DNA of 64,000 nt, from the NCBI RefSeq assembly GCF_006345805.1, contig NC_043008.1:77066001-77130000 (forward strand), in the 5' to 3' direction. Shown here piece after piece: positions 2,040 to 59,390 of this stretch (position 1 is its first letter; each line of letters opens with the position of its first letter). The notes under the pieces were generated by a model. It was given only the letters and a program-made list of their open reading frames with translations. It was not told where the DNA came from and searched no databases. Source of the DNA: Octopus sinensis. Lineage: Eukaryota. Both the position numbers and the translations under genes were made by a program.

Positions 2040-2406
2040 CCCATCAAAATATCCGTCATATGCAAGCATGACAGGCCTGATGTTATTGTTTGGGACAGGC
2101 AAGAAGAAGCATGTACCGTCATAGAGGTCAACTGTCTTGCTGGTGTGAATATCACTTTGAAAATCAAATGAAAAGCAGATATCTATGGACAACTGCTTCA
2201 TAAACTCCAACTTTTATATCCGGATTACAAATTTACATTTATACCATTAATAATTGGTACACTTGGTTTTGTTAGTAAATACCTAACTCTCAGTCCGGTT
2301 AAGCTTGGATTTTCCGAAAAAAAAATTAACCAACTGATTCACATATTACAAATAGAATCTGTAAGCGGAATAGTAAGACTATGCAAGACATTTCTCGGGC
2401 TTAAAA
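2040..2406 (+). mobile_element. 3' fragment of an RLE-endonuclease LINE (CRE/NeSL/R4-like)
   Basis: HDRPDVIVWD...CTVIEV restriction-like endonuclease motif, with stops. Confidence 0.6.
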
Positions 2407-3543
2407 TGTGACATTTTTGCTATCTACATTCCAAAGATGGAGCTTTGTATCTTTGTTAAAAGCAGCTAAGTCGAAAAGTCATACAGTTTTGAAATATGAG
2501 TTCTTTCCTGGAAATACAGCATCTCAGGCAGCTCAGAATATCAATGGAGTATTTCATTCTAATGTTATAACACAGCAGACAGTATCAAATTGGTTTACAA
2601 AATTTCGTTCTGGTAACTTTGAACTCACAAATGAGCAACGCGGTCGACCAGAAATACAGGTGAATAATAACAAACTGAAAGCCACCGTAAAGTCAGATCT
2701 CAAAGTGCCCATGAATTATCATTGTTGTTTGGTGTTTGCAAGCAAACAATACTGACTCACATAGTTCAAATCGGTAAAGTGGTAAAGTTGGATAAGTGGG
2801 TTCCACGTGAACTCAATGAAAATCAGAAACAGCAACATTTGGAAGCCTGCATTGTGCTACTTTCTCGTCACAAAATTGAATCATTTTTTAATCGAATTGT
2901 AACATGTGATGAGAAATGGATCCAATACAACAACCGTAAACGCTCAGCACAATGTTTGGACAACGAGCCACCAAGACACAGTCCAAAAAGCAAAATTCAT
3001 CCAAAGAAGCTAATGGTGTGTGTTTGGTGGTCTGGCGCAGGTGTGATCCATTATGATTTCATTAAACCTAGCTCATCAATCACGGCCGAAGTATACTGCA
3101 GCCAACTGGACCAAATGACGCAGAAACTTACAAACAGCCTAGATTAGTCAACTATTTCATTGCAAGATAACGCCAGACCACATATCGCACAAATGACATT
3201 GGCGAAACTACAGGACTTTTAGCTGGAAGTTCTCCATCAGCCACTATACTCACCTGATCTCCACCCCACCCCCCGCTGTCTACCACTTCTTCCCGAAATT
3301 GGATAACTTTTTGTTAGGAAAAAAAATTAATTTCGATGATGCTGTAAAACTGGCCTTCTAAAATTTTATTGACTCTAGATTACCAGGCTTTTACAGTTCC
3401 GGGCTGACACGCTACCGCTGAAATGGCAAAAGTGTATTGACAATTTCGATGCATACTTTGATGAATACAACTATTCCTTGTGTTTATAAAACATTAGCAA
3501 ACATTTTTTCTTTTCTACAAATGTCATACTTGACGACTTAATA
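2407..3543 (+). mobile_element. Degenerate mariner (DD34D-type) transposase relic
   Basis: HTH (ASQAAQNINGVF..TVSNWFTKFRSGNFEL..RGRP), WVPREL, IVTCDEKW, KKLMVCVWW, LQDNARPH and PPYSPDL motifs across frameshifts; ends at TA. Confidence 0.9.
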
Positions 3544-19792: not shown

Positions 19793-22380
19793 CTTTCTTT
19801 ATTGGTCACAAGGGCCGCACATGAAATCAAAAGACGATACGACACAAAGGATAGTCGGGTATTTACATATAGTGCGTGTAAAGAATTAAAAAACAATGAC
19901 AACGAACAATAAAAATTCGAACAATAAAATTCCCCAAAAGGGGAGGACGCTCAACCCAGGGGCAACCATGGAACACCACACATCCTGGACATACCGAATG
20001 CCAAGGATACCTCGGACGGATACTCCTCTCCGCAGACGCATGTTCAGTGTACGCCCATTCACACGGGCCAGCCTTGTTGCATTCACTACCCTTTCAACAA
20101 AAATACTAAGGGGAAGCACTTCCCTCTCCACCCTCACTTCCCATTTCAAGTGAAACTTTAAAAAATCGATGAGGGCTTGGTCGAAGAGGAAAGTATCTGT
20201 CTTCAGTACTTTCAACCACATCCACCACACTAACTCTTCCGCCATAGCCACCAGACAAGAAAACTGTCTGCATATCTTCGATCAGCTAATCGACGACAAG
20301 CGTCAACCACTTGGCTAACACCTTGGCCAAAATCTTATAATATTCATTCAGCAAAGTTATAGGCCTAAAATTGTCTATTCCCCCCCTCTTGTTCCGATCC
20401 TTTCTCAGCAGCACTACCACGCTACGTTCTGCTGCCAGTTACAGTAGACATCCGCCAAAAGATCGCCGAATAAGTTTGGCATATGAAAATAAAGTTTGAA
20501 AGGCTGACCATCCAGCCGCGAGGACTTTTCCTTTGTGCAGTTGGTCATTGCGCCCCATATGTCATTTGATATTATCGGCATTTCGTAGAATTCCGCATAC
20601 CTGTTAGAAAGGCGCTGCATATCACCGAGTTAGGAGGTCAAATCCTCCCACATCTCCGACTCACCGTGTGCTCCGTACAGTTCAACAAAGAACCAGTCTT
20701 GTCGCCAGCATGTCGGTTGCTATGCCACTTTTTAGCGCCTTTTCTAACTTCCTAACTAGATCTCTCTCTATCCTAGATTTCTCTAACATTATTTCTTTAC
20801 TAAATCCAACTACCTCTACTCTAATAGTAGGGCTATCCATCTTTGGGTGTTGGCAATTGCACCCGACAACTTCCGATGGACTAACTTGCTAACTCGGTCT
20901 CTAAAAGCTTTGGGTGCCGAGAAAGACGCATTCAACTTCCAGTATTCGGGGCCGTACCTGTGTATCCTATCTAGGTCGACACAAATTTGTGACCTGTGTA
21001 GCCGACGACTTTTAGTTGTGGACAATTTAGGTACAGACCTACAAATGACTCTATCTAGATACAATCTGGAAGACCCGGTTCTGTTTTCTCATATCCACAT
21101 TAGTGCATTCGAGAAATCCAATCGGTACCTGTCAGCCAGTTGAAAGCGGCTGAGCAGGTTTGTGAGGCTTTTTTTTACATCCCCTCTCCTATCGGCTACC
21201 TCCACCCTATCCAGGCGTACATCCAAGATAGCTTCCAATTGCCCACTAGGATCAAAAGAGAGAACTCTCCCAAGGAAAACCTTCACATGTCTGAAGAAAT
21301 CTGGCTGCTCCGCCCCAGTTGGGGCGTACACAGCGACTAGTCTAAATGCACCATCTTCGCTATTGCTCACATCCGGGACCACCAACTTATCACCCGAGTC
21401 CAGGCTTTTCCTAAACAGCACTTCCACTCCACTTCCCATTCCAGGCCGACTAAGAGAAGCGTAGATCACAAAGTCATAGAAAATAGGGGCTAGATCGTGT
21501 GTGTCAGAAATCCTGGTCTCGCTGACTGCCGTCGCATCCATAGCTAGTGACCTGAGGGCTACTTATTTACCAGAATCCGTATCCTGTTGGGGTTCCTTTT
21601 GGAACACTCTTGAAAGCATACTTGTGGATTTTACAACGTTTGGGAAGTTTTCCCTATGTTTCCAGCGACATACTCAACATCATTGGTGCTTCCGGCACTT
21701 GAACGATGCTGGTGTCGAAGATTTCACCCTCCTTCTCGATGGATTTCCTTCGTGGTATGAGGGCCATCAGTTCTTTGTTACTGTTGTTGCTGGGGCTGGT
21801 ACCCCTTGTGTTGTTTGCAAATTCTTTAGTTGTTGCGGCGTTTTGGTCCTATGGTTCCCTCACTTCTTTGATCGGCTAATCTCCTCACACAGGTGGCACC
21901 GTGATCAACACTCAACTGTAACATGCATCTGTTCCTCTCGTGGAAGGCAAATGAGGTTTGGGATCTTGTGGATTGTGCCTGGTTTGATGTGGAGTAGCAC
22001 GTCCACACTAATCCCAGGCCAATTTTCTGACAGGTTTGCCTCACCTCCAGGAGGTTGTTATTCCTGAGACTCGTTGTCCTCATTCTAGATGGCTAGAGAA
22101 ATAATTTTCGATCTGACAGGGAAATAAGGAGTCTTTTGACGGTTAGACATTCAATCTTGAAGAACGCTGAAATACCTGAAAATTGCTTGGCTCACGAGAA
22201 CTGAATGTCAGGCATAATATTTCTAACGCTCTCATCACGTCTGGCTGACCAGCTGTCTGCGACCGTTTTGTGTTAGTGGAAACCCATTTGTATATTACTG
22301 TTTTTTGTTCGTTTTTGCTCATAGCTCGGGCGGTGTCTGTGCTACCCCATGATTTTTCAAGCTTGATCAGCTTGGGCCAG
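19793..22380 (-). mobile_element. Degenerate, internally deleted Tx1/L1-clade LINE
   Basis: APE motifs (AVSETR, LVAVYAP, YLDRV, YWKLNAS) and RT start NFRPITLLNEYYKILAKVLAKWL (~20300-20372); 3' end runs into the (ATT)n tract. 5' limit approximate. Confidence 0.8.
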
Positions 22381-31231: not shown

Positions 31232-32090
31232 TATATATATATAATATATATAAAATAGTAAAAAGTGAAAAAACTACAGAAGGCTTGTTTTAGAAGGTTA
31301 AAAAATATATATTTGAGTCATTATGTCTGAAGAATGTTATAAATTTTTTTCATACAATGACATAGTTTTTGAAGAAAGACCGGTTTCGCGTTCAGCTTTT
31401 CAAATTTCTTACATTGTTATGTTTACGTTGAGAAGTGTGAAGGAGAGTGAAAGAGAGTTCCAGATAAGGGGAGGTTATAAGTAATTTCTTCCGGTGTAAG
31501 GGAGATAATCGCTTAATATTTCTTGCTTTTCTTTTGGAGTGAGTTTCTCTGTATAAGAATGTTGGAATGGTTAAGTTTGGGCTTGTATTTTTCAATGAAG
31601 AATGTTTCCTTGTTTAGTCTAATTTGTGTTGGTGTTCCGATAGCACATTGGTCAAATGGAAAGATTAAAAATTGTGATAGTAGTTGCTTTGCGCATTTCT
31701 CAATGTGCTCACTAAAGGGTATCATTCTGTATTCTGGGAATGCAATCTGTTGTCGATGCAGTGTGCATCTACGTCTGAATGATAGTCCCATGGACCCCAC
31801 GTAGTTTTGGTGGCAGCCCGAGCATTTTATGACATAAATTATGTTTTCAGAGGCACAAGTAAAATTAGATTTGATCTTGAATTTCTGTCCCTCTTTGAAG
31901 AGGAATTCTGATCCTTCTAGTAGGTTTGGACATGTTGCACAGTTCGGTCTACCACATTTTTTTACTTTTGCATCCGTAATTTCAGAAAACAATTTTGCCT
32001 TTGTGAGAATCTTTTTAAGTGATTTAGGTTGTTTGTAGCTTTTAATGATTTGGTGTGTGTTTAGAATTTCCTTTAATTTGGGGTCCTTAT
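31047..32090 (-). mobile_element. 5'-truncated Penelope-like retroelement (Neptune-type): GIY-YIG endonuclease plus 3' pLTR
   Basis: ORF 32100-31513 has the CGRPNCATC Cys motif and NIIYVIKCSGCHQNYVGS..RRRCTLHRQQI GIY-YIG. Hammerhead remnant GAAACCGGUC at ~31388-31379. Inverted terminal copy 31047-31145 vs 31251-31352. Confidence 0.88.
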
Positions 32091-32107
32091 ATATATGCAT
32101 ATAAATA

Positions 32108-32170
<63 letters not shown>

Positions 32171-32534
32171 CTATATTAAATCTCTGAGCGAGATGCAAAC
32201 AGTAGCAATACGGAATCATGTAAATATGATTATTGCTACGGTTGCACATACAAAGTAGCAATAACATATTTGGGCCAACCAAGTGTGGCATCTTACACAG
32301 GACAGTGCCACTGGCGTTTATAGCCCCAGGAAGGCATCTCTAGCTGGCCAACGACGGTCACAGAATATATATATATATTACAGTTTTCTATTCACACCCC
32401 TCTCTAAACCTACACCAGACTTACATCTCATATGTATATAACCAAGGACATCTCATATATATAACCAAGGCCAAAGTCGGAAGAAAAGTTACGATTCGAT
32501 AAAAAGTAAGCAGGTGAAAAAAATATATATGCAA

Positions 32535-34705: not shown

Positions 34706-37700
34706 ACGATCTGGTGGCCATAACCTGATTTACAGAATCAACGGGGATATGGGGAATCCAAAACAATACACCATGAAATTAATGTAAAATATTATTAACA
34801 ATTCTCAGCATGGAAAAAACAGATATATACACAAACAAAAAACCAATGCCACACCAGACAGGCAGTCAAAATATTTACAAAGGTAACATATATATATATA
34901 TATATACAGGTCAGAATCCCGGCTTCACCAACTTGATTTCCCAAACTTGTATCCGTAACTCTGGATTCACAATTTTTGGTTTCACCAAAATTAGCCTCAC
35001 ACAAAACCTGGCCTCACAAATTTGGTTTTTCAAAAAGATGGATTCCAAAAAATTGGATTTCATAAAATCTGGATTTCCATTTTAGTAGAAATTCGGCTTT
35101 CAAACCTCGGATTTTGAACCTAGGACCCAGATGTGACACAGAAATTATTTTAAATCTGACAAAAGTTCTGGCGAATTCCTGGAGCATAAAATAAAGCCCT
35201 AAATGCCTAACAAAAAGCACAATGTGCATAAACTAAACAGGCAATCATAACTTCCAGAATCCAATGGAACAACTTTGTCTCACAGAAAAAAAACTGTCAC
35301 AAAAACTGGCGGATACAATTTTCTCTGCTTATAAAGGTTTGCCACAGTCTAGCCAATTTGTTATAGTTTCACAGTTTTATCTAATAACACCTAGCTTCCC
35401 CCATTTTGACAATGGACTTCATCCTGACCTTAGAGTGCAGCATGAAAAACTGTTTACCTGATTAACTTGATATTATAATTTATAATTTCCTAACATTCCT
35501 TTCCCCTTAAAAGGGAAAATTTTTATACACAATAAACAATTTTCAGAAAGATACAATATCATCCAGAAAATACAGAAGTCAAATATGTACATGGTAAGTG
35601 CTAACTTCTGGATAATGCATCTGTAAGTAAATTAGCATTTCCTGCAATATGACAAATATTCAAACTAAACTGTTGCAGATACAAGCTCCACCTCAGAATC
35701 CTCTGATTAGTGCCTTTCACCTTATTAATGAAAACTAAAGGATTGGGATCTGTGTAGACAGTGGTGGGATTTGAACCTATATAAATTTGAAAGTGCTGAA
35801 CTGCCCACACAAGAACTAAACACTCTTTCTCGATGGTAGAGTAATTCTTTTGACAAGAATTAAACTTCATAGAATTCTTCCTGATTTTTCTCATCAACTA
35901 ATTTGTCCTTGACCGGCATAACACCATTAAAGGATTTGGATTCAACAGCTCTTTCATAGAATGGCTTTAACATATTGACATGACAAACTTGTTGCTTCTT
36001 TCTACGATCCGGAGTTTCAATCACATAATCCAAATTGTTAAGTTGCTTAACAACTTTGTAAGGTCCAGAAAATCTAGCCTTCAAGGAACTACCTAGTACA
36101 GGAAGTAGAGCTAACACCTTACTATCAAGAGGAAAACTACGCTTTTGGGATTTACCATCATATCTCTGCTTCATTTGTTGCTGATTAGACTCTAAGTTGA
36201 CATGCGCAGTGTTATTGCAGAACGCAATCTCTCCTTAAACTCAGAAATATAGTCAATCAAATTAAACTTAGGTGCAATGTTATCACTATTCAACCAACTA
36301 TCTTTTAGTACTTGTTAAGGGTCCTCGCACGCTATGGGCATAGATCATATCAAAACTAGAGACCCCCTAAAGTTTCCACGGGAACTTCCCTAGCTGCAAA
36401 CAATACTAGAGGGACACCATGGTCTCAATCCTCCTCATGTTCCAGACAATAAGTCCGCAACATATTCTTCAATACTTGGTGGTAATGTTCTGAGGCTCCC
36501 TGTGCTTGTGGGTGGTACTCTGTAGAACGAAGCTGTTTGATCCCTAATTTATACATCAATATCTGGAACACACTTGACATGAAATTGGATCCCTGAATTT
36601 CCTTTGGAAAACCAAACTGGGTGAAAAACCATAGCATCAGCTACAGTAGTTGCAGAAACTTCTTTCAATGGAATTGCCTCTGGATACCTAGTCGCCTGAT
36701 CCAATACAGTTAATAAGTAGCGATATCCTGCCTTTGTTCTGGGCAATGGACCAGCCACATCAATGATAATAATCCTGGAAAAGGGTTTTTTACAGTCGGA
36801 TTGGGCTATAAGGGTGCCTTGTCGATGGTTGCATTTTGTTTACCCACCAACTGACATGTTTTACAAGTTCAACAACAACTAGCAACATCGTAAGATAAAC
36901 TTGGCCAATAAAAGTACTGTAAACTTCTATACTTGTTTTTTTTTAAACACCTAAGTGACCAGTCAATGGAATATCATGTGCCAGATTCATAATATCAAGT
37001 CTATACTCCTTTGGGACTACATTTTGCTCACTAACTTGCCAATGATCAGATACTGGGACATCACATGGCCTCCACTTCCTCATTAAAACACCATCATGAA
37101 GATAAAAACATATTGGCAATTTCTCTGAGAAAGCTCTAGTATAAAGCTTACTTAAACTGCAATACTCTTTCTGCTTAAGGATTAAAGTTTTCTTGTCTGC
37201 TTTGAATTCAGCTTCATTAGGATAAGTAGGCTCCTCACCACCAGAATTCAGATCAACAAGGAAAGTATTAGACAAAGCTATGTTACCATCATTAACTGAA
37301 CTAATATTAGATTCCTCCGTACTGGGACTAATACTAGCCTCCCTATTCATAGCCTTGGTCTGGGACCTTGTCATTGCACATTCAGGAAATATGCCTGGAT
37401 ACAATGTCTCTAACTTCTCTGTCTCGTGATCAGTCTCAGGTTTAGACAGCACAATGGGAACTGCATAAACTTTATTACCTACAATATCATTGCCTAACAA
37501 AAAGTCCACTCCATCAATAGGTAAGGTAGTAACTAATCCAACAGCAACTGGACCTATTACATATTTACAATCTAAGTGAACTCGATACAAAGGAATGGAA
37601 TCACATTCTGCAGTAATACCTTTAATTAGTACTTCCTTTCCCAAAGATGTCAGCATGCTAATAGGTATAGTATCATGCTTCAAGAGAGTTTGTTCTGCAC

Positions 37701-39625
37701 TAGCATCTCAAAAAACTGTAACAGACTTAGGGGTAGACGAACTGTCAGAAGTAGCATCAACACTAGAATTATCCACAACTGAAGTCATAACTAAATCTGC
37801 ATCAGAAACACCCACATCTGGGTCCAACTTGATCTTAGACAAAACCCCTGTGTCCGAAATACACTTAAAACCTAATGGCACAGCTACCTCTACAGAACCT
37901 ACAACATTTGACAAATCACAACACTTAAAAGCTGCTTCAGGAACAGCTCAATCTGACTGACCTGCTTGAGCTGTCTCCTTAGCCTTTAATTTTCTTCAAT
38001 CAGCAATTAAGCGTCCAGGAGTCTTACAGTAATGGCAGGGTTTAGAAGAAGCACTAGACTGAGCCTTCTGCTGCTTCTGTTTTCTGAATAACACCATCTG
38101 ACTTGATAGATTGTTTTTTTATTGTCATTCTTTTATTGACGCTTGCCGTGAATCAATGCATACTCATCGGCAAGTTTTTCGGCTACAAAAACTCTCACGT
38201 CATAGGGGGAATTATATTCAGGAACTCTTCTATCAACATCAACTCTTCCAACTGGCTGAAAGTATCAACTTTTTTAGACCTAAGCCACTTACCTCATATG
38301 ACCTTTTTTCCTAGTGAATTCTATGTAAGAGTCACAGGAATTTTTCCAAGCTTGCCTTAACTTTTGCTGGTACACTTCAGCTACTTGTTCATGACAATAT
38401 AATATCTTCTGTTTCACTAAGTCATAATCTTTGCAATCAGCTATACTCATAGCAGAATAGACCTCTAAACTTTTCCCAGTAAGTTGAGTTTGGAGTAGTA
38501 TTGACCACTTAGTTTTAGGCCATTTCATTAACTCAGCTGTTTTCTCAAAAGCTAAGAAATAATTATCCAAATCACTATCCTGGAATCTAGGAACGAATTT
38601 ACAAGCACTAGCAATGTTAAAGTGTTTAGATGGAGTAGCAACATCAGCCTCCTCAGACTCGGAATCAATTTGATTCGCTTTTAATTTTATTTCTTACACT
38701 TGAAGTTCATGCGCCTGCTTCTCTTTACCGGCGGCACATTTTTCCTGTTCTAAACTAATTTGCAGTCTTAACTTTTCAAGTTCATAAGCCATCATTCTTT
38801 CACTAGATGATAATTAAGGGGCGACTGAATCTGAGCTTGTCTCATCACCGATGGTAGACATTTTACCCTCAACAATTAGGGTCTGTTTCACATGCGAAAA
38901 AATTACACTTTTAAGATTACCTGCAGATACCTCTAAATCAAGTTTAGCACTCATCTCTAAAAGCGCATCTTTGTTTAAATGCTGCAGTTCCCTCAAAGTG
39001 ATTGTATCTTTCTGCAGTAAGGCTTCTGCTATGGTGCACTCCATGACTACCATAGTTTACCAAAGAATAAGACACCCATTAAAACAGGTTTACATATAAC
39101 ATCACAATGGTAATATTTGATAAAAGGCGCTTTAACAATTTACAAATTTATTTATTTATTATTTTTTTTAAGAAAATCTTGGTGTGTACAACTGTTCGAA
39201 ATCCCGGACGAGCCCCCAATTTGTTACGACCTGGTGACCATAACCTAGATTTACAGAATCCACAAGGATAGGGTGAACCCAAAACAACAACACACCATGA
39301 AATTTTTTGGAAAATATTAACAATTCTCAGCATGGAAAAAACAGCCTACATACAAACAAAAAACCAATGCCACACCAGACGTGCAGTCAAAGTATTTACA
39401 ATGGTAACATATATATATACAATTCAGAAATTCGGACTCAGAATCCCGGCTTCACCAACTTGATTTCACAAACTTGGATCCATAACTCTGGATTTGCAAT
39501 TTTTGGTTTCACCAAAATTGGCCTCACAAATTTGGTTTTTCAAAAAGATGGATTCCAAAAATTTGGATTTCATAAAATCTGGATTTCCATTTTTGTAGAA
39601 ATTCGGTTTTCGAACCTTGGATTTT
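34702..39625 (-). mobile_element. Gmr1-like Ty3/Gypsy LTR retrotransposon, degenerate, RT deleted
   Basis: 3' LTR 34702-35495 (TG..CA); PPT 35496-35508; 5' LTR 39222-~39625 (truncated); tRNA-Pro PBS. Internal order: gag (YFLAFEKTAELMKWPK..LTGK, Cys knuckle), protease, integrase (HLGV, GPLPRTKAGYRYLL, YHPQAQG, GPY), RNase H (YSTIEKECL..DALSR). Confidence 0.92.
39201..39218 (-). promoter_or_regulatory. Primer binding site complementary to the tRNA-Pro 3' end
   Basis: TGGGGGCTCGTCCGGGAT 3 nt inside the 5' LTR end. Confidence 0.92.
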
Positions 39626-42248: not shown

Positions 42249-44519
42249 CTTTACAATTTGGAAAGTGTTTTGGTTCTTTCAGGAGCCATGAATAGAGGTG
42301 GCTAAACTGGGGTACACGTTCCCTGCATATGTGGTACCACGAGTTGCATGTAATCAGTCTTTGTAAATAGTGTTCACATCCCATAAAGCTATGAGGCCAA
42401 CCTAGATGTTTCACCTTGGAAAAATTTCACTTAAATAATTCAAATAAAAACATGTACCATTGGGTTTCTGTCCTGAATATTTATAAAATAATCACTTCTT
42501 ACATAGGCATGACGTCTCAGACTTATAGGGGAGGGATACAGGAGTATGACAATCATGCTTTTCCTAAGGGCACTGGCAACTTATATGAAATGTTTTGCAT
42601 TTTCTCACTGGGAACTGAAATTTGTTTAATGATTCAATTACCCAAACAAGACAATTATTATATACAAAAAAATGATAAATAACCCTAATGAAGAAAATGA
42701 TAATCAAGATATTCTTGTTAAGAGTTCAACATATCTTCCTGCCCTTTGTTGAATATGGTCATCTTAGTAGTTTGGCCACCGTTGTTCAGCAGTTGGTCCA
42801 CTCCAAGTGACACTACAGGTTTATCACAATATGCTGTGTCATCCACACAAGCAAGTAGTTTTACAAACATACAACCAGCTGTTGATAGCAATCCAGCTGT
42901 CAACGACACTGGAGAAGCTACTTTCTTAAAAACAAGAAAGACATTTTTAGATCCCTGAAAACCAAATATGTTAAGGCATTCTGGTTTCTGCTCAGTAAAT
43001 TGTAGTTTCTTAAAATTTCTAAAACAAAAAAAAAGTATCAAGTGTATTTATGTATATGAATATAGGTATGTGTACAACTGTGTGTATGTATATGTATACA
43101 TATACACACACACACGCATATATATATATATATATATAGTGTATTACATATGAAGCTTGGTTGTGTAGCTTTTCTTTTCCTGTGGTGGCCACAACTCCAA
43201 AATACAGGATATTGTCACAACCAAAACCAAAGGTAGATGTGGTTTCTCAGATATGAAGATACAGCAAATCACAACAGTCACTTGTGCATGTAACATAAAA
43301 GACCATGAAGTCTGAGAATTTCTTAAATTGAAATTCCCTCACAGAATTTTATAACTGCCTATGTTTGCATATAGTGACCTCATAATAATTGGTGCGTGAG
43401 TGTTTATGAGTGTGTGTGTGTGTGGTGTGTGTGTGTGTGTGTGTGTGTGTGCAAATTCTACTATAAATAGAAAAAATAAATAATAATATTAAAAGTTATT
43501 TTAACCATTCTCCAAGTGTCTCCCTTCAACAGTATAATTACATAGAAAGAGGTTTGTGTGTGTATGGGACTTATATTTTGGACCCTACCAAATAAAATTT
43601 AGGTCTTTTAGATGCTTTAACACTCATTGTGTTTTATTGTTCCATCTCAACTTCTGGTTTTGTTGATCTTTCACAATGAAATTTGCATACAGGCTTTTTC
43701 TTTCACAATTACATAGCCACATGCATATACGCACACACACATTATATATATATATATATATCATCATCATACATACATATATACATACACTCACTCACAC
43801 ATACATATATACACACAAAATACATAAATTGCAGTTTATAGTGCACATATGGCAACACATTGAAATACATGAACAAGGGATGGGATTCATAATAGTCACT
43901 TTTGAGTCTGCAAGTCTATAATCCCATGTTTGGTTCTAGCTTCATTTTGGCCCATCTGTTACCACAGTTGTTCTATTTGCCAATGGAATCACAAGTCAGT
44001 CCATTTATATATTTGTTCCACAATCTTTTATAAATTAGTTTCTATTTAGACAGTTTACTGTCTAATACCTGCACAATCTGTATCACGGCGCTGTGTTAGC
44101 TCTCAAGCACACACTTGTGCTACTTCAAATGCACAATGGTGCTCTCCTCTCTCCATATTGCTTTGCACATCTTTCTCTGAATGTCAACCATTGCAGTAAC
44201 AGAGGGAATTTTCCTGCCAATGTTAACAAAAAAGAAATGTAAGTTCTTAGAATCAGCATTAGAACCAGAATTAACTGGATTTTCTGCTTTCTCAATGATA
44301 TGAAAGCTTCTTTTTCCTCCATTTCTTCTCTGTTTCTTTGCCAACAATCAACCCAGATAGATGGCACTAACAGCAATATCAGCAGTATACTTTTGATAGC
44401 TTTCATAATGTCTTTCTTTGATGGAATTAGTTTCAGTTCTGTTGACTTCTGCAGTCCTTTGTATGGTTGTTTCACATCAATCCAACTTCTAGGTAGCATG
44501 CAAGCATGCTACAGTGCAT

Positions 44520-44761
44520 TCACAGGTCTTGAAGAAGATCTTTAAGTAAGACTTCCACATCAGTTTTACCATGAATATAACGGCAAAACAAATTGTCTAC
44601 CATTTTACAATTGATGCCATACAAAGAAGGGAGACTCATAAGAACACGTGAAAATCTGATGTGGTCCCGTGGATGTTTGGTGTTGATATGTTGCTGGAGT
44701 CTTTGTTGAATACAGCTGTTCATGCTATCGACAATGGAAGCCATCTCTAATCCAACATAAC
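44520..44761 (-). CDS. NR0B: NR0B-type nuclear receptor, terminal coding exon (LBD helices 9-12, AF-2)
   Basis: Acceptor acctttcag| at 44762/44761 matches the phase-1 donor: G|GT TAT gives G-YVGLEMASIVDSMNSCIQQRLQQHINTKHPRDHIRFSRVLMSLPSLYGINCKMVDNLFCRYIHGKTDVEVLLKDLLQDL*. It has RF..L..LP.L and an AF-2-like LLKDLL. TGA at 44522-44520. Confidence 0.9.
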
Positions 44762-45037
44762 CTGAAAGGTGACAAAACAATAGAATATTAATAATACAAT
44801 AAGAAAAAGTGGTAGAATCATGGCCAATACACAGAAACAGTAAAAACCATTCACTCAATCAATTCACAGATCAGAGAAACTTAGCATTTTAAAAATGTTT
44901 GCTAATAATCAAAACAATCACTGACTATTTGGTTTCACAAAGATATACACTGATGTCAGAACTGTATTCATCAGTAATCTTCATATGGATTTAAAGGCCT
45001 GCTCTCTCTCTCTCTCTCTCATACACAGACTTTGCTA

Positions 45038-45190
45038 CAGGCATGGCTGGGTGATAAGAAGTTTGCTTCCCAACCACATGGTTCCAGATTCAGCTCTACT
45101 GCGTAGCACCTTCAGGAAGTATCTTGCATTATAGCCTCAGGCCAAAGCCTTGTGAGTGGATTGATAGAGGGAAACTGAAAGAAGCCCATT
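45038..45190 (+). mobile_element. CORE-type SINE in the NR0B intron (further copies 46862-47005 minus, 56484-56760)
   Basis: Similar to the 5721/6258 family. Confidence 0.7.
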
Positions 45191-45249
45191 GTATATAAAT
45201 GTGCTTTTGTGTATGTACAGACATGGACATAAGTATACATACATGCACA

Positions 45250-45281
<32 letters not shown>

Positions 45282-45778
45282 AATATAGATACATATTTAT
45301 ACATCTATTTATATACACACACACACACACATGTAACTACATCCCAATTACTCCTTATCAGAAGAGCACCATACTTTCACATGTCCACATGAATGTAGGT
45401 GGCTCTTCAAACCAGCTTCCATTCAGCAAGAACATTCACAGATATAACCCTTGAACTATCCTGTTTCCTGATATCACCAGTGGAGTTGTGATCTCATGTA
45501 TTTTACTATGCCTGGTTAAGTCACTAGCTGACTCACAAATTAAGCTACATTCATTACAAATGTTGTCAAAGAGGATGTGGCAGCAAAACCACCTGCTTGA
45601 TTTCTCCCTAGCCCATGTGAATGTGTGATTAATCCAGCTCTTGAGAAGAAATCATCCACACACATTGCACTTCAATTCCAGCTGGAGCTCCGCAGGCACT
45701 GCTCTTGAGTCTTGCTTGTGGAGTGATTGCACAGAGAAGTATGCTGCATTGAAGCGTTCACTCAAAGACATCACATCT

Positions 45779-45907
45779 ATTAGTTTCAGTTCATGCAAAG
45801 GACTTCCACAGCCCTTTGCATGATTATTTCACATCAAACCAAATCTAGGCAGCATGCAACATTGCATTCACAGGTCTTGAAGAAGATCTTTAAGTAAGAC
45901 TTCCACA
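45779..45907. repeat. Local direct duplication of 44426-44559 (end of NR0B CDS plus start of 3'UTR)
   Basis: 45 identical bp (tgcattcacaggtcttgaagaagatctttaagtaagacttccaca) flanked by a clearly homologous but diverged ~85-bp UTR segment starting attagtttcagttc. Confidence 0.95.
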
Positions 45908-45930
45908 ACCTTTCCCAATGTTATCCATAT
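45868..45930 (-). CDS. Candidate alternative terminal exon built on a duplicated AF-2 segment (IWITLGKVVEVLLKDLLQDL*)
   Basis: Acceptor cttttatgttag| at 45931/45930. 45863-45907 is identical to 44515-44559. In frame only after the 23-nt microexon. Confidence 0.42.
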   Translation of the reverse strand: MWITLGKVVEVLLKDLLQDL

Positions 45931-46387
45931 CTAACATAAAAGCTTTTAAAATTGTCTTTTGTAACATCTTTAAATCACTTCTTGGTTTGTGATCTTACCT
46001 TTTCCCTCTGGTCAGTTCCCTGTAAATTATGCACCTGAGGAGTCCTCTATCATAGGGATGATTCATGACTGACATTTCAGTACATGGTCCTACTATAGAT
46101 AGCACTCAGAAACCAATCACATGATGTTTTACACACAATTTGTAAGAGTGTGGAACATCTGTTCCATGAGCACATAAAGCGTTGCTCCTTGGAGATTTCA
46201 ATGCAAATGTGATCACAACACCTGGAGTGCTTTAGGACATTATAGTATGGGCAAAAGGGCAAGATGAACATCAATGGCCATCTCCAATTATGCACTGTTA
46301 GTTGTGAGCAACATTTTCTCTCAATAAAAAGATATCTGCAAAGCAACTTACATCTAAGCATTGAGACATTTCTAATTATATTCTTAC

Positions 46388-46410
46388 CAGAGAGACCTCC
46401 ACCATCTGTT
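46388..46410 (-). CDS. Candidate 23-nt alternative microexon of the NR0B gene (E-QMVEVSL)
   Basis: Minus strand reads ctgttacag|AACAGATGGTGGAGGTCTCTCTG|gtaaga: canonical AG/GT, converts phase 1 to phase 0. Usage is inferred. Confidence 0.4.
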
Positions 46411-46455
46411 CTGTAACAGTAATGTACACACACAACACACACATATATAAATAAA

Positions 46456-48290: not shown

Positions 48291-49992
48291 CAGCATTGAA
48301 AAGCACCAACATTCTTAAGTATTTGTATTCAGAACTATCCAAGTTCATACACTGACATTTGCGTATGATGCTCTGTATACTTTCAACAGACTTCATGGTT
48401 GGTTCATCAGACGCTGGAACCTCGTGGTCACGGGCTGGAGATGATGGAAGAGGCGTGACAGCAAACTGGAAGTTATTCTCAGCCATATGCATTAACAGCA
48501 TACGAGTCCATGAGTTCAAGATGAGCGTTAGGCGGTCGTTGTTGGGAAGCTTCATAAATTGAGGAATTTCTTTAGCAAACTTGACCATTTTGTAAAGCCA
48601 TTCAGTGACACGGGCGCTGATTGGCAGAAGGTTTTTTTTGGCCAGGGTCACACGAGCTGTGCTAGACAATAAGTAATCTTTCGAACCATCATATTCTATT
48701 TTAGCTTCTTTTTCTTGTGACATAGTGTCATCATTTGAGGAAGAATTTGATGAAGAAATGGAAGAAAAGTCTGATGAGGACGATAATGACATTTTATTTT
48801 GTTTGGAATCATTTCGACCACAACTGAGAAGATCTCGCAAGAGTGAATGTCCATTTTTTGATTGGGTTGAAGATTGGTTCTGGAGCGGTGGAGATGGACG
48901 GCTATCAATACCAGCTTGATAAGAATCACTATTCTGCAAAGACTGCTGGGATAGTTGAGGCTGGGAAGTAGATTGCCAAGGTGACCGATGCTCATCTTGG
49001 TGGCCAGTCAATGAATTATGATGTAATACTAATCTTGGAGAGATGCAGTGTCTGCTCGGTGAGTTATTACATGAGTCTTTCTTATGTGAAGACTGACCCT
49101 GCATAGCAAGGCTGTGTTGAATTTCCATAGACATGTCACTGCTCTGGACACTTGAAGACTGTTGTTGTAAACTATGGTGTGGTACATCTAATAGTTGATG
49201 TTGTTTCTGCTGCTGCTGCTGATGTAATGGGGGGATTGTTGATAAGTGATTTTCGATAGGAGATTGTCGCTGTTGAATTGAAGTATCACTGAGAAACTGG
49301 ATTGGAGAATGTCTGCTTCTGAGAGGTTGATTTATTGAAGAATTTGCCATTTGCATGGCCTGCTGATCCACTGACATGTATGTGGTACCACAGGAAGAAA
49401 GGAGTGAAGGATCCGTTGTTCTACCATTGTCATGTGTATATTGATATGTTAATGGAAATGTAGCATCTTCTAGTTGGTGCTCCTCTCCTCCATAGCCAGA
49501 GCTGTCACTACAAATAGATTTCCTACTTCCTGTCGAACAAATTGAAGATGCAGATGAAGAAAAGCCTTTACAAGATAAATCCATTGGTTCTGATTGGTAA
49601 CCTGATGGACTTGATGCTGAAGAGCGAGAAACGTCAGATTTATGATAAAATGATTGACCAGTAGAGTAGCAAGGACTGGCTGAGAAAGAACGATCTGAAA
49701 ATGCTGTTGGAGAGGGTGATGTAGAGCAAGATGAAGAATTTGATGGTGATGAAGATAGGTGAGGTGAGGTAGTTAAATGGGAATAACTGGCAGGAACTTG
49801 GCCCAAGAGAACACTCTCCAGAGTGTTATACCGTTTCTCATAAGGTGTGGTCCTTTCCTGTGTAGCTGGGTAAGATTCCCAGTTTAGATAAGAGGGCTGC
49901 ATTGTCAGATGAGGAGAGTTCTGGTTTGGACTACCTGTCCACTTCAGTGGTTCATAGTGGATATTGGAGATAGAAAACTGCATTTCCCCCAT
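48291..49992 (-). CDS. NR0B: NR0B-type (DAX-1/SHP-like) orphan nuclear receptor, large first coding exon: Ser/Gln-rich N-terminus plus LBD helices ~3-8
   Basis: 568-aa ORF ending in an LBD: VKFAKEIPQFMKLPNNDRLTLILNSWTRMLL...PTMKSVESIQSIIRKCQCMNLDSSEYKYLRMLVLFNA, resembling DAX-1 ([43 protein letters not shown], from recall). No C4 zinc fingers. Acceptor ttttatcttcag| opens the exon at 50006; phase-1 donor G|gttagt at 48291/48290. Confidence 0.88.
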
Positions 49993-51810
49993 TCTTATTG
50001 TGTAATCTGAAGATAAAAAGGAAAAAAAAAAAAAATTTTTTAAACTGCCAAATATTTTAGATTTTTAAAAGAAGAAACAGAGAGAGATAGAGAGAGAGAG
50101 AGATAATACTAGCATTGAATATTTACCAACAAAACATCTGCGATAAAATAAATATTTATGTGTTTAATTGTTTGCAAGGACTTGTGCATTTAGACAGGTC
50201 ACACTTTAAGGGCTGCTGATACAAACAAAACTAATACCAGCTGATACTGAACCAATGACATTGAAGTATATGAGGAGACAGGGGAGTCAGATGCAGTTAA
50301 ACATTTTAAAGTCAGAATATGAAGATGAAATTTACAACTCAGAAGTTTAAAAACGTCTCCACCATTGAAAATTTAAGAATAAGTAAAAAAAAACAAAAAC
50401 ATCTTTAGTAACTAAAAAAAAAGAATAATTTGGGCAAATTGGACTGGGGTCTAGTGTAGAATGATGAGGGGTATGGGGTGGTATATGGTGTAGGGTAAAG
50501 AAACTGGTATGGTCTAGTGTGATGAGAAGTGGTGTAGCATGGTGGAGTAGGTTGTAGTTAGGTGTGTGGTGCTGTATTGTAGGGGATATAGGGTAGTACT
50601 GATAGAACGCATAGTGTGGTGGTGTGGGGTCAGATGTAGTGAAGTAGTGAGATGGGGTGTTTGGTGCTTGCTGCATTGGTTAAGTGTTATCTCTTTACTA
50701 TAATATAATATCATGACTATCAAACAAGCTGACACAGGAAAATGTTAAGAATAGCCTCCTCGCCACCATCATGGACAACTTGGATAAAGAGAAATAACAG
50801 TAAATACTTCATTGGTTTTATCAATATACTAAGAAACGATAAAATAGTAGGGATGGGAAAAGATTCAGACTGGGTGTATGGGTGTGCTCACATATACATA
50901 AACATACACACACATATAAACACATATATTGACACACATACATAAATACACACACACACACTACACACATTAAAATAATGGCTCTTGGTAGACCAATATT
51001 CATGTTTTCGCCAATTTAAAATTCCTGTAGGAAACGGGATTTATCTACTTCACCAAAAAGATTTGGGTTCTCCCAGATTTTGCTTTTCCGTATCAGAGAG
51101 AGAGAGAGAGAGATGAGTTATAGACTGCAACAGCTTGTACTAATTATAATAATTAGTAAATATTTATAAACAGAATGGTGGTAAACTAGTTAATTTATTC
51201 ACAGCATTATGTGTAAGTGTGCGTGGGGTGGGAGGCACTGGCTTCTCCGTCACTCCCTTCGTCTATCAGTCTGTGTATGTGTGTAACATGGTAGCAGTGG
51301 AGGCGGTAGCCAAGAAGACGGGGACGTAGGTGAAGTGACAAGTTCCAGAGACACGAGTTTGGCCAACTTTTCGTGGCAGCTAATTTTAGCAACATCGCGT
51401 CTACGAAGACTTCGTCTTTGGAGTTTTCCCCTACAGCCATTAAGTGTAACACAATTAATAATTGTAGTCAGGGGTCAAACAAACGACAGTAACATCCATT
51501 GAATACGAGTGTAAACTGATGCCGAAATAGCACGTAATAATAACGTCCCCTCACTCTTTTGTGTGTGTGTGCGTGAGAGAGAGAGAGTGTGTGTGACAGA
51601 AAGAGAGAGAGAGAGAGACGTTCAACACATTCTTAGTCGCAACATCCAATAAGGCGGAAAGAGCTTTATTGGGGGAGGGGCTGCAGACGACAATGAAACT
51701 GTTCGGTAATTATGTGATATTCATGCCATCCCCAGTAATATTAGTGATGGAAAGAGTTCATACAAGAAAAAAGAAAATCAACTCTGCCTCACCTGGCCGC
51801 TTTTAAACAG

Positions 51811-57759: not shown

Positions 57760-58455
57760 GCGTGCTTTCACTTCACTACCGAGCGCAGCTCTGTGTGCCT
57801 TGGGTATGTGCTGTGATTTGTTGTGATGCTCTGATGATTATTGTATGGAAAGTGTTCTGCGTAGGATGTGTGCAGTGCCTAGTCGTGCAATTTTCTGTAT
57901 GTTATATGTGTTTGTAAGTCCTGGTGTTTTTGTTACGTATTTGTCTGAATATTTTTTTATCATGCCTAATGCACCTACTATGATAGGAATTGTTTCTGTT
58001 TTTAGATTCCACATTCTGGTTACCTCTATTTCCAGGTCTTTGTATTTTGAAAGTTTCTCCATTTCTTTTAGAGACACGTTGTCATCTGCCGGTATTGATA
58101 CATCAATTAGAAAGCATTTTTTTTTCTTCATGATCCCTGACAACTAAGGGATCCCTGACAAATTAAGGTATGTTGGCCTTAATTTCTCTATCTGTGTGTA
58201 TCGGCATATCCCAGAGTATGGTTGCTTTCTCGTTTTCTGTGACCTTTTCTGGTGTGTGCCTATACCATCTTTTTTCTGTTGTTATTCCATAATGTTGGCA
58301 TAGCTTCCAGTGTATGTAGGTTCCAACTCTGTCATGTCTGTGAATATATTCCTTCTTAGCCAGGACTGGGCAGCCAGAGATAATATGATTTATTGTTTCT
58401 TGTCCATCTCCACATATTCTGCAGTTACTAGTTATATTTCTTTTCATTACATGTT
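57760..58455 (-). mobile_element. R4/Dong-like LINE 3' end (CCHC knuckle plus RLE endonuclease)
   Basis: CRICGDGQETINHIISGC..YIHRHD, ILWD, LIDVSIP, K..KY.DL, IPIIVGALG; bracketed by (TAA)n. Confidence 0.88.
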
Positions 58456-58463
58456 TTTATTAA

Positions 58464-58539
<76 letters not shown>

Positions 58540-58542
<3 letters not shown>

Positions 58543-59390
58543 GTCGTTGCACAGCTTCTATCGCTGGAGATGTCCTACGATGTCAGCTATTCACTGCCAG
58601 TGAACTAAGGTAATACCCCTTGTTTTTTTATTACCATCCGGAGTATTCGAGCGGTTCCAAGCAGTGCTATTTTCTGCAAGTGCTCCATCCTTATTACAGC
58701 TCCTATTTGTTTCATGTACTTCTCAAGATTTCTGCTCACTCTTCCCTGAGCTCCGACAATTATTGGTACTACTACCATCTTTTTCAGCGACCACAATAGC
58801 TTAACTTCCCAAGCTAACCTGTTGTATCTATCGACTTTTCTTTCTTCCTTATCGCATACCTTTTTGTCAGCTGGGCATGCTTTATCTATGATCCAGCATC
58901 GTTTGCTTTCTTTCTCAATTAACTCTATGTCTGATTTCCAATTACTTATTTTATGGCCGCATTGAATCATAAAATCCCATAGGATCTTTGCATTATCATT
59001 TTCAATGATGCCTTCGGGTTTATGTTCGTACCACTCTTTTGCTCTATCAAGTCCATACTTGTTGCAAAGTGTCCAATGGACAATCCTTACTATGTTGTCA
59101 TGACATCTCTTATATTCTTTCTGGGCTATCAGCGTACATTTACTAGTAATATGCCATACGGTTTCACCATTTTGTCCACAAATTCTGCACTTACCACTTT
59201 CTGATGTGTTGTCTATTCTGTATTTGATGTAATTCCGTCTTAATGCTTGCTCTTGGGCAGCACAGATAAGAGTCTCCGTTTCCGGTTTTAAATCACTTTT
59301 AGTCATCCATAGCCATCTTTTTTCTCTGCCTGTCTTATCTTCAACATCCCTTTGAAATTGTTCATGCATTCTTTTCTTTATCCACCTATT
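58540..59390 (-). mobile_element. Second R4/Dong-like LINE 3' end
   Basis: AAQEQAL, CRICGQNGETVWHITSKC, ILWDF, VPIIVGA, LGTARILR; bracketed by (TAA)n. Confidence 0.88.

Follow-up and report, generated by a model that had tools for sequence, protein, structure and literature searches.

The window, that is the whole stretch of 64,000 nucleotides that was analysed, carries on its minus strand the gene for XP_029643396.1, a 647-aa protein of Octopus sinensis. This protein corresponds to the minus-strand open reading frame 49992-48291 joined to an exon starting at 44761, and the gene is a single-copy NR0B/Dax1-like receptor. All positions are those of the window. The coding exons are:

48291 to 50006, minus strand: large coding exon, with an acceptor AG at 50008-50007, the ATG at 49992 and a phase-1 donor after 48291.
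44520 to 44761, minus strand: coding part of the canonical last exon, encoding the end of the ligand-binding domain (LBD) and the AF-2 helix, with the stop codon at 44522-44520.

The large exon was 100% identical to XP_029643396.1 over the searched region and encodes a low-complexity N-terminus with LxxLL-type motifs followed by the first part of the LBD. The last exon is conserved among mollusc homologs and, in a PDB search, aligned with the COUP-TFII LBD match over approximately its final 80 residues; we take this segment to be helices 9-12 of the domain. An earlier sequence-only reading of the locus had named the gene an NR0B receptor, and the protein searches bore this out. Pfam detected Hormone_recep above the cut-off (E 1.8e-8) and the PDB matches were LBDs. 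LxxLL-type motifs were present at residues 58 and 385, with similar motifs in 6/6 other mollusc proteins checked, and scallop and sea slug homologs carry the source names Dax1 or NR0B1. The C4 zinc-finger DNA-binding domain (DBD) is absent: Pfam returned no DBD family for XP_029643396.1, the cephalopod homologs carry PF00104 only, and three DBD patterns gave 0 matches in the six frames of the window. Mouse DAX-1 ranked first in the PDB search, by a small margin, for the scallop homolog, mid-list for the octopus protein, and third, behind COUP-TFII and NR2E3, for a 25-sequence profile; by itself, the PDB ranking does not separate NR0B from NR2. The NR0B orthology of the octopus gene rests on source names and on the trees as presented in PMC4070562, PMC4388693 and 10.1101/2025.03.12.642703.

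Upstream of 50006, the large exon has a strong acceptor, and a 3291-nt contig (X13 record 9, from one of the runs described below) leaves approximately 550 nt unaccounted for ahead of the exon; at least one 5' exon or extension therefore exists. Many database homologs (P0002, P0004, P0054, P0058 and others) run on from the large exon into the intron and end shortly afterwards, indicating that the intron position is common to molluscs. These entries are likely to be unspliced or genomic calls and not isoforms. Within the same intron, a stretch at ~48105-47780 (minus strand) has a tRNA-like head and is presumably, by its look, another SINE. Elsewhere in the window we noted broken LTR-retrotransposon-like fragments downstream of the gene (35604-38693, minus strand; RT_RNaseH E 8.9e-20 and a weak rve match), a mariner-like transposase fragment (2405-3144, plus strand; Transposase_1, E 1.1e-22) and retroelement-like ORF fragments on the minus strand at 57841-59390, 31516-32175 and 21092-21562, with a weak zf-RVT match only at 58608-59390.

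The intron between the two coding exons contains a second copy of the end of the gene:

45779 to 45907, minus strand: 129-nt copy of the gene's 3' end, comprising the last 12 codons, the stop codon (45870-45868) and the start of the 3'UTR.
44426 to 44559, minus strand: parent segment, comprising the last 12 codons, the stop codon and ~95 nt of 3'UTR, with a 9-bp palindrome at an 8-nt indel.

Alignment of the copy (45907-45779) with its parent (44559-44426) gave 113 matches in 138 columns. The first 45 nt of the copy (45907-45863) were identical to the parent (45/45), and the remainder contained 68 matches, 12 mismatches and 13 gap columns in 4 indels, amounting to 15% substitutions plus indels in the 3'UTR part. 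The alignment confirmed the earlier statement that the last 12 codons and the stop are copied perfectly into the gene's own intron while the UTR part has diverged. The similarity was far beyond chance (E 2e-25 locally, 3.5e-28 genome-wide), and a genome search with the last exon returned two matches, the gene and the copy. Contigs of four runs (X1, X3, X6 and X13; four studies; from 20 listed) were placed on 44150-46440; none of the listed runs is recorded as RNA, which counts in neither direction, and these four were treated as RNA because the spliced canonical junction was present. In X1, X3 and X6, the last-exon contigs broke at 44544/44530 and the intron contig began at 45878, as expected for a 45-nt exact repeat assembled with 31-mers. 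This indicated that the copy is real and not an assembly slip.

A genome search with the surrounding region returned dispersed repeats and identified 45346-46424 as a decayed LINE remnant, in three parts:

45908 to 46047, minus strand: LINE remnant upstream of the copy, end of the reverse-transcriptase ORF, 66-77% identity to 9/13 other genomic copies.
45346 to 45778, minus strand: 3' part of the LINE remnant, resuming in register beyond the copy, piecewise 60-82% identical to 13/13 other copies.
46026 to 46424, plus strand: remnant of the LINE endonuclease, in the opposite orientation to the 3' part, 59-73% identity to 5/6 other copies.

Of the 13 other copies, 9 matched the LINE on both sides of the gene piece and 4 matched it downstream only; the gene piece takes the place of ~35 nt of LINE. 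Imperfect look-alikes of 5-6 nt between LINE and gene were seen at both junctions and may represent microhomology, the ancestral letters being uncertain at 16% divergence. The endonuclease and the 3' part lie on one strand at another locus (L048), showing that they belong to one family and that the 5' part is inverted in the window. The two parts overlap by ~20 nt at 46026-46047 in a twin-priming-like arrangement, and a large middle part of the element is missing. No target-site duplication was identified at the LINE, both flanks of which are microsatellites. Genome matches numbered at least 36 for the 3' part and at least 6 for the endonuclease end (queries counted in). Among six LINE fragments searched with Pfam, related copies gave weak matches below the cut-off to Exo_endo_phos (0.012), Exo_endo_phos_2 (0.12) and DUF6451 (0.013); of the other three, two had no match and one had an unrelated weak match. 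One related copy (L005) contains a SINE. The family probably belongs to the RTE clade, judging by its motifs. For O. vulgaris, LINEs of this clade have been described (PMC13282606). The LINE in the window has diverged by ~16-17% along its own branch; the copy may therefore be old, in which case its identical part would have to be explained by gene conversion or selection.

The RNA contigs and the reference disagreed at a few positions. In the intron (within 45878-46375), 8 extra letters and a T>G change at 46096 were common to the contigs of X1, X3 and X6, so that the reference has either a private allele or small errors there; T>C at 44392 was found in all four runs. Related LINE copies carry 7 extra letters at 46210/46211, which would place the 8-letter difference at that site.

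The sequence-only reading had proposed that the copy serves as a hidden alternative C-terminus, spliced in through a frame-correcting microexon:

46388 to 46410, minus strand: proposed 23-nt microexon, antisense to the LINE endonuclease, with a ~6-nt deletion; no splice seen.

The arithmetic of this proposal was correct. The copy has its own acceptor AG (45932-45931), and a direct splice from the phase-1 donor at 48291 is out of frame. The 23-nt piece 46410-46388, bounded by AG/GT (donor side CTG/GTAAGA), restores the frame, which stays open and gives a product of 595 aa instead of the canonical 647 aa. Direct splicing from 48291 to an AG before the copy (exon start at 45930 or 45909) led to an early stop, and AGs further upstream gave an in-frame stop or were out of frame. 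What had been overlooked is that these elements are all LINE remnant: the acceptor AG and the following 23 nt (first 7 codons of the proposed exon) derive from the reverse-transcriptase tail, as the whole microexon does from the endonuclease. The acceptor AG was present in 0/11 other LINE copies, and approximately 5 of the 11 sites ahead of it differed from those copies, making the T-rich tract derived (P ~0.03, post hoc). For the microexon, the donor GT was found in 3/6 aligned copies and the acceptor AG in 1/6; the donor reads GTAAGA where other LINE copies have GTGAT and is nearer to the consensus.

In the 2.36-kb part of the intron before the copy, 70 AG..GT pieces of up to 51 nt are free of stops and restore the frame. 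Two of these have YAG/GTRAG boundaries and one, the proposed microexon, passes the strictest setting and is the best-looking. Tiles of the same size across the window contained at least one frame-restoring cassette in 33/54 cases with YAG/GTRAG, in 15/54 when a pyrimidine rule was added and in 7/54 with GTAAG, a background in which the tiles include the copy's own locus and the GTAAG setting is tuned to the proposed site. The frame-restoring microexon is thus not beyond chance, such cassettes being present in 13-61% of tiles.

Other marks of a functional end were looked for. Neither AATAAA nor ATTAAA, the two variants scanned, occurs from the stop of the copy (45868) to the last exon, the first being at 43638. 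The alternative end was found in 0/5 octopod proteins (among 72 fetched), four of which have the canonical end and one of which stops at the donor. A search for short proteins with the large-exon end gave 10 matches (58-72% identity), none with the proposed tail. As to conservation, 0 of 289 pattern matches in a metagenome scan were confirmed as loci, and the run from another organism (organism B) had no contig at the copy. Among the paper titles listed, none concerned an octopus NR0B isoform, and two matches to DAX-1A were reference-list entries.

The RNA contigs showed normal splicing. The canonical junction was detected in 4/4 runs. X1, X6 and X13 list it, as a loose end at 44762 whose sequence is that of the large exon's end, and for X3 it follows from the depth table; rough depths were ~700, 135, 390 and 275 in the four runs. 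The junctions implied by the hidden isoform (48291 to 46410 and 46388 to 45930) were represented by an alternative junction contig in 0/4 runs among the contigs listed, and rare splices can drop out of such assemblies. In each of X1, X3 and X6, one unbroken intron contig spanned the proposed acceptor; in X1 and X3 it also ran through the microexon. Bin depths at the proposed acceptor equalled those of this single contig, indicating that no junction piece lies there; 30-nt junction pieces did appear at the canonical acceptor. Contig-free stretches covered 45625-45877 in all four runs and 45305-45877 in X1 and X3, and nearly so in X6; in X13 the whole of 45625-46440 was empty, and in X6 the microexon was uncovered. 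These holes prove nothing, a filter having removed records. The depth of 427 at 45844-45920 in X1 corresponds to the shared 45-nt piece placed on the copy and not to expression. A high-copy SINE-like repeat at 45037-45233 attracted hundreds of unrelated contigs, and all 15 contig joints among those listed fell within it, at 45074-45172. The contigs were built by Minia3 with SPAdes-like cleaning and single k-mers dropped, as described in PMC12424806. They may lose short low-depth paths, their depth is a poor measure of expression, and the stretch examined stopped short of the donor at 48291. The RNA result speaks against a major isoform, not against a rare or tissue-limited splice.

Collectively, these data did not support the hidden C-terminus: its splice sites are LINE-derived, cassettes like it are common by chance, only the canonical RNA junction was seen, a poly(A) signal of either form scanned is lacking and none of the octopod proteins carries the end. 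The accompanying idea of exon birth by partial duplication under selection or gene conversion survived in part, in that the duplication is real and the 45/45 identity wants explaining.

The probability of no change over the first 40 nt was 0.0025 if all sites change at one rate, 0.024 if the parent is constrained and 0.22 if protein selection acts on both copies. Simulation gave 0.001-0.05 for the same 40 nt and 0.007-0.075 for a run of at least 45 anywhere. The contrast between the two halves of the copy is mildly beyond chance and needs some explanation. The UTR half carries a further mark:

45791 to 45823, minus strand: 14-bp hairpin (DNA fold), found in the copy only, extending a 4-bp stem of the parent.

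The fold had a z of -3.89 in the copy (0/200 shuffles) and of -1.19 in the parent, and an arm of at least 10 was obtained in 3/2000 shuffles. The hairpin is likely to result from fold-back synthesis. Together with the 9-bp palindrome at the 8-nt indel of the parent, it would represent two single fold-back events, and part of the UTR difference is therefore likely not to be clock-like.

We favour, as the probable explanation, that the copy is an inert templated insertion left by the repair of a DNA break, its template being the last exon 1.35 kb away, and that it is barely spliced. A silent repair scar is preferred to a hidden variant because the proposed splice sites sit in transposon debris and the assembled RNA contained only the normal splice. 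The weights given here to all readings are matters of judgement. A break would have occurred inside the old intronic LINE remnant, with the loss of ~35 nt of LINE, and repair primed by short matching ends would have copied the gene's own 3' end. The mechanism may have been microhomology-mediated templated repair of the SD-MMEJ or MM-BIR type. Typical polymerase theta inserts are shorter than 129 nt. Slower divergence of the coding part, the parent being constrained, would help the 45/45 identity to survive; several UTR differences would be single fold-back events, chance would also contribute, and later local gene conversion possibly added to the identity. Templated insertions with direct or inverted repeats and template switches of 2-5 bp are described in PMC7407515. 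Several points count against this explanation. In the absence of selection or conversion, the probability of no change is only 0.001-0.05, against 0.22 under selection. The splice sites appear better than those of the LINE ancestor and the microexon is the sole candidate in the intron at the strictest setting. The reach of the RNA contigs also counts here, as they cover 4 of the 20 listed runs, can lose rare variants and end short of the donor.

A second possibility, which we consider unlikely, is that the gene piece was captured when the LINE inserted. The reverse transcriptase would have switched from LINE RNA to a local NR0B transcript and back, leaving an inert copy. The 5' part would have been inverted in the same event, and the perfect 45 nt would have come from later gene conversion. 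In its favour, the copy and the LINE 3' part share one orientation, the own-branch divergence of the LINE is close to the 15% difference of the UTR, and the 5' part is inverted with its short overlap. Same-orientation chimeras arise by template switching and inversions by twin priming, according to PMC13174262. Such a capture requires, however, two switches in mid-element and a gap of ~2 kb (an inferred size) at the inversion. An insert of that age makes 45/45 harder to obtain without conversion, and the microsatellite flanks yielded no target-site duplication.

Quite unlikely, in our judgement, is a real minor or tissue-limited isoform in which LINE debris was exonised twice, as the 23-nt microexon and as the acceptor with its 23 nt, and joined to a copied AF-2 helix. 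LxxLL motifs and AF-2 would remain in such a receptor, the last third of its LBD would be gone, and it would work as a modulator in the manner of DAX-1A. The strongest point for this isoform is the coding identity, which fits protein-level selection approximately 10 times better than neutrality (0.22 vs 0.024); the derived acceptor AG and T-rich tract, the derived and near-consensus donor and the open frame are also in its favour. Human DAX-1A uses the equivalent intron and lacks AF-2. The parallel with it, drawn in the sequence-only reading, stands in part: PMC5159745 describes, for human NR0B1, a potential alternative exon 2 whose significance is unclear. Against the isoform, the alternative junction was missing from the contigs of 4 runs and its acceptor was crossed by unbroken contigs in 3, neither a canonical poly(A) signal after the copy nor a database protein with the proposed end was found, and frame-restoring cassettes arise by chance in many tiles. 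An LBD deprived of those helices would also be unlikely to fold. An octopus NR0B isoform built from two pieces of a single dead LINE (antisense endonuclease and sense RT tail) and a copied AF-2 helix, kept identical by selection, would be a regulator convergent on DAX-1A, with an LxxLL-type AF-2 but no folded end to its LBD; it is given the same low weight. That the copy or its perfect 45 nt is an artefact of assembly or polishing is barely credible: an 8-nt gap and one base do separate the reference from the contigs of three runs in the intron, but contigs of three separate studies break where the 45-nt exact repeat forces it, and contigs of the same studies include the upstream flank of the copy with one other letter.

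Read as a templated insertion, the locus is a minor but clean case of a gene whose own end was copied into a retrotransposon in its intron. It also calls for caution, as frame-correct microexons and acceptors are easily found by chance in repeat-rich cephalopod introns. The isoform, if true, would represent exon birth from LINE debris and local duplication in a regulator linked to spiralian growth and reproduction (10.1101/2025.03.12.642703), converging on the human DAX-1A arrangement.

Compared with the mollusc and spiralian NR0B proteins described in PMC4070562, PMC4388693 and 10.1101/2025.03.12.642703 (CgNR0B, BgDAX, LgDAX and Platynereis nr0b1/2), the octopus protein is alike in having an LBD without a zinc-finger DBD and LxxLL-type motifs. 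Unlike them, the octopod N-terminus is longer and of low complexity, and none of the proteins compared shows an equivalent of the intronic copy. Human DAX-1A resembles the octopus case in that its NR0B gene has two coding exons and a single intron where an alternative end may lie (PMC5159745). Unlike DAX-1A, for which a transcript has been reported, the octopus form was not observed, needs two LINE-derived exons and would keep AF-2. LINE/mRNA chimeras formed by template switching and twin priming are similar in that a host-gene piece lies in the LINE sense beside an inverted 5' part; in the passages of PMC13174262 that describe them, the foreign piece is placed next to LINE-1, whereas the octopus piece is internal, comes from the host gene and sits in an element that is likely RTE. 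Insertions attributed to SD-MMEJ with polymerase theta or to MM-BIR differ from the octopus copy in that its template is 1.35 kb off, its insert is 129 nt long and its junctions are blurred by age. What the octopus locus has in common with the insertions described in PMC7407515 is that a short stretch was copied locally, that a little sequence was lost at the site, that the ends look alike over a few letters and that there is an inverted-repeat (fold-back) mark.
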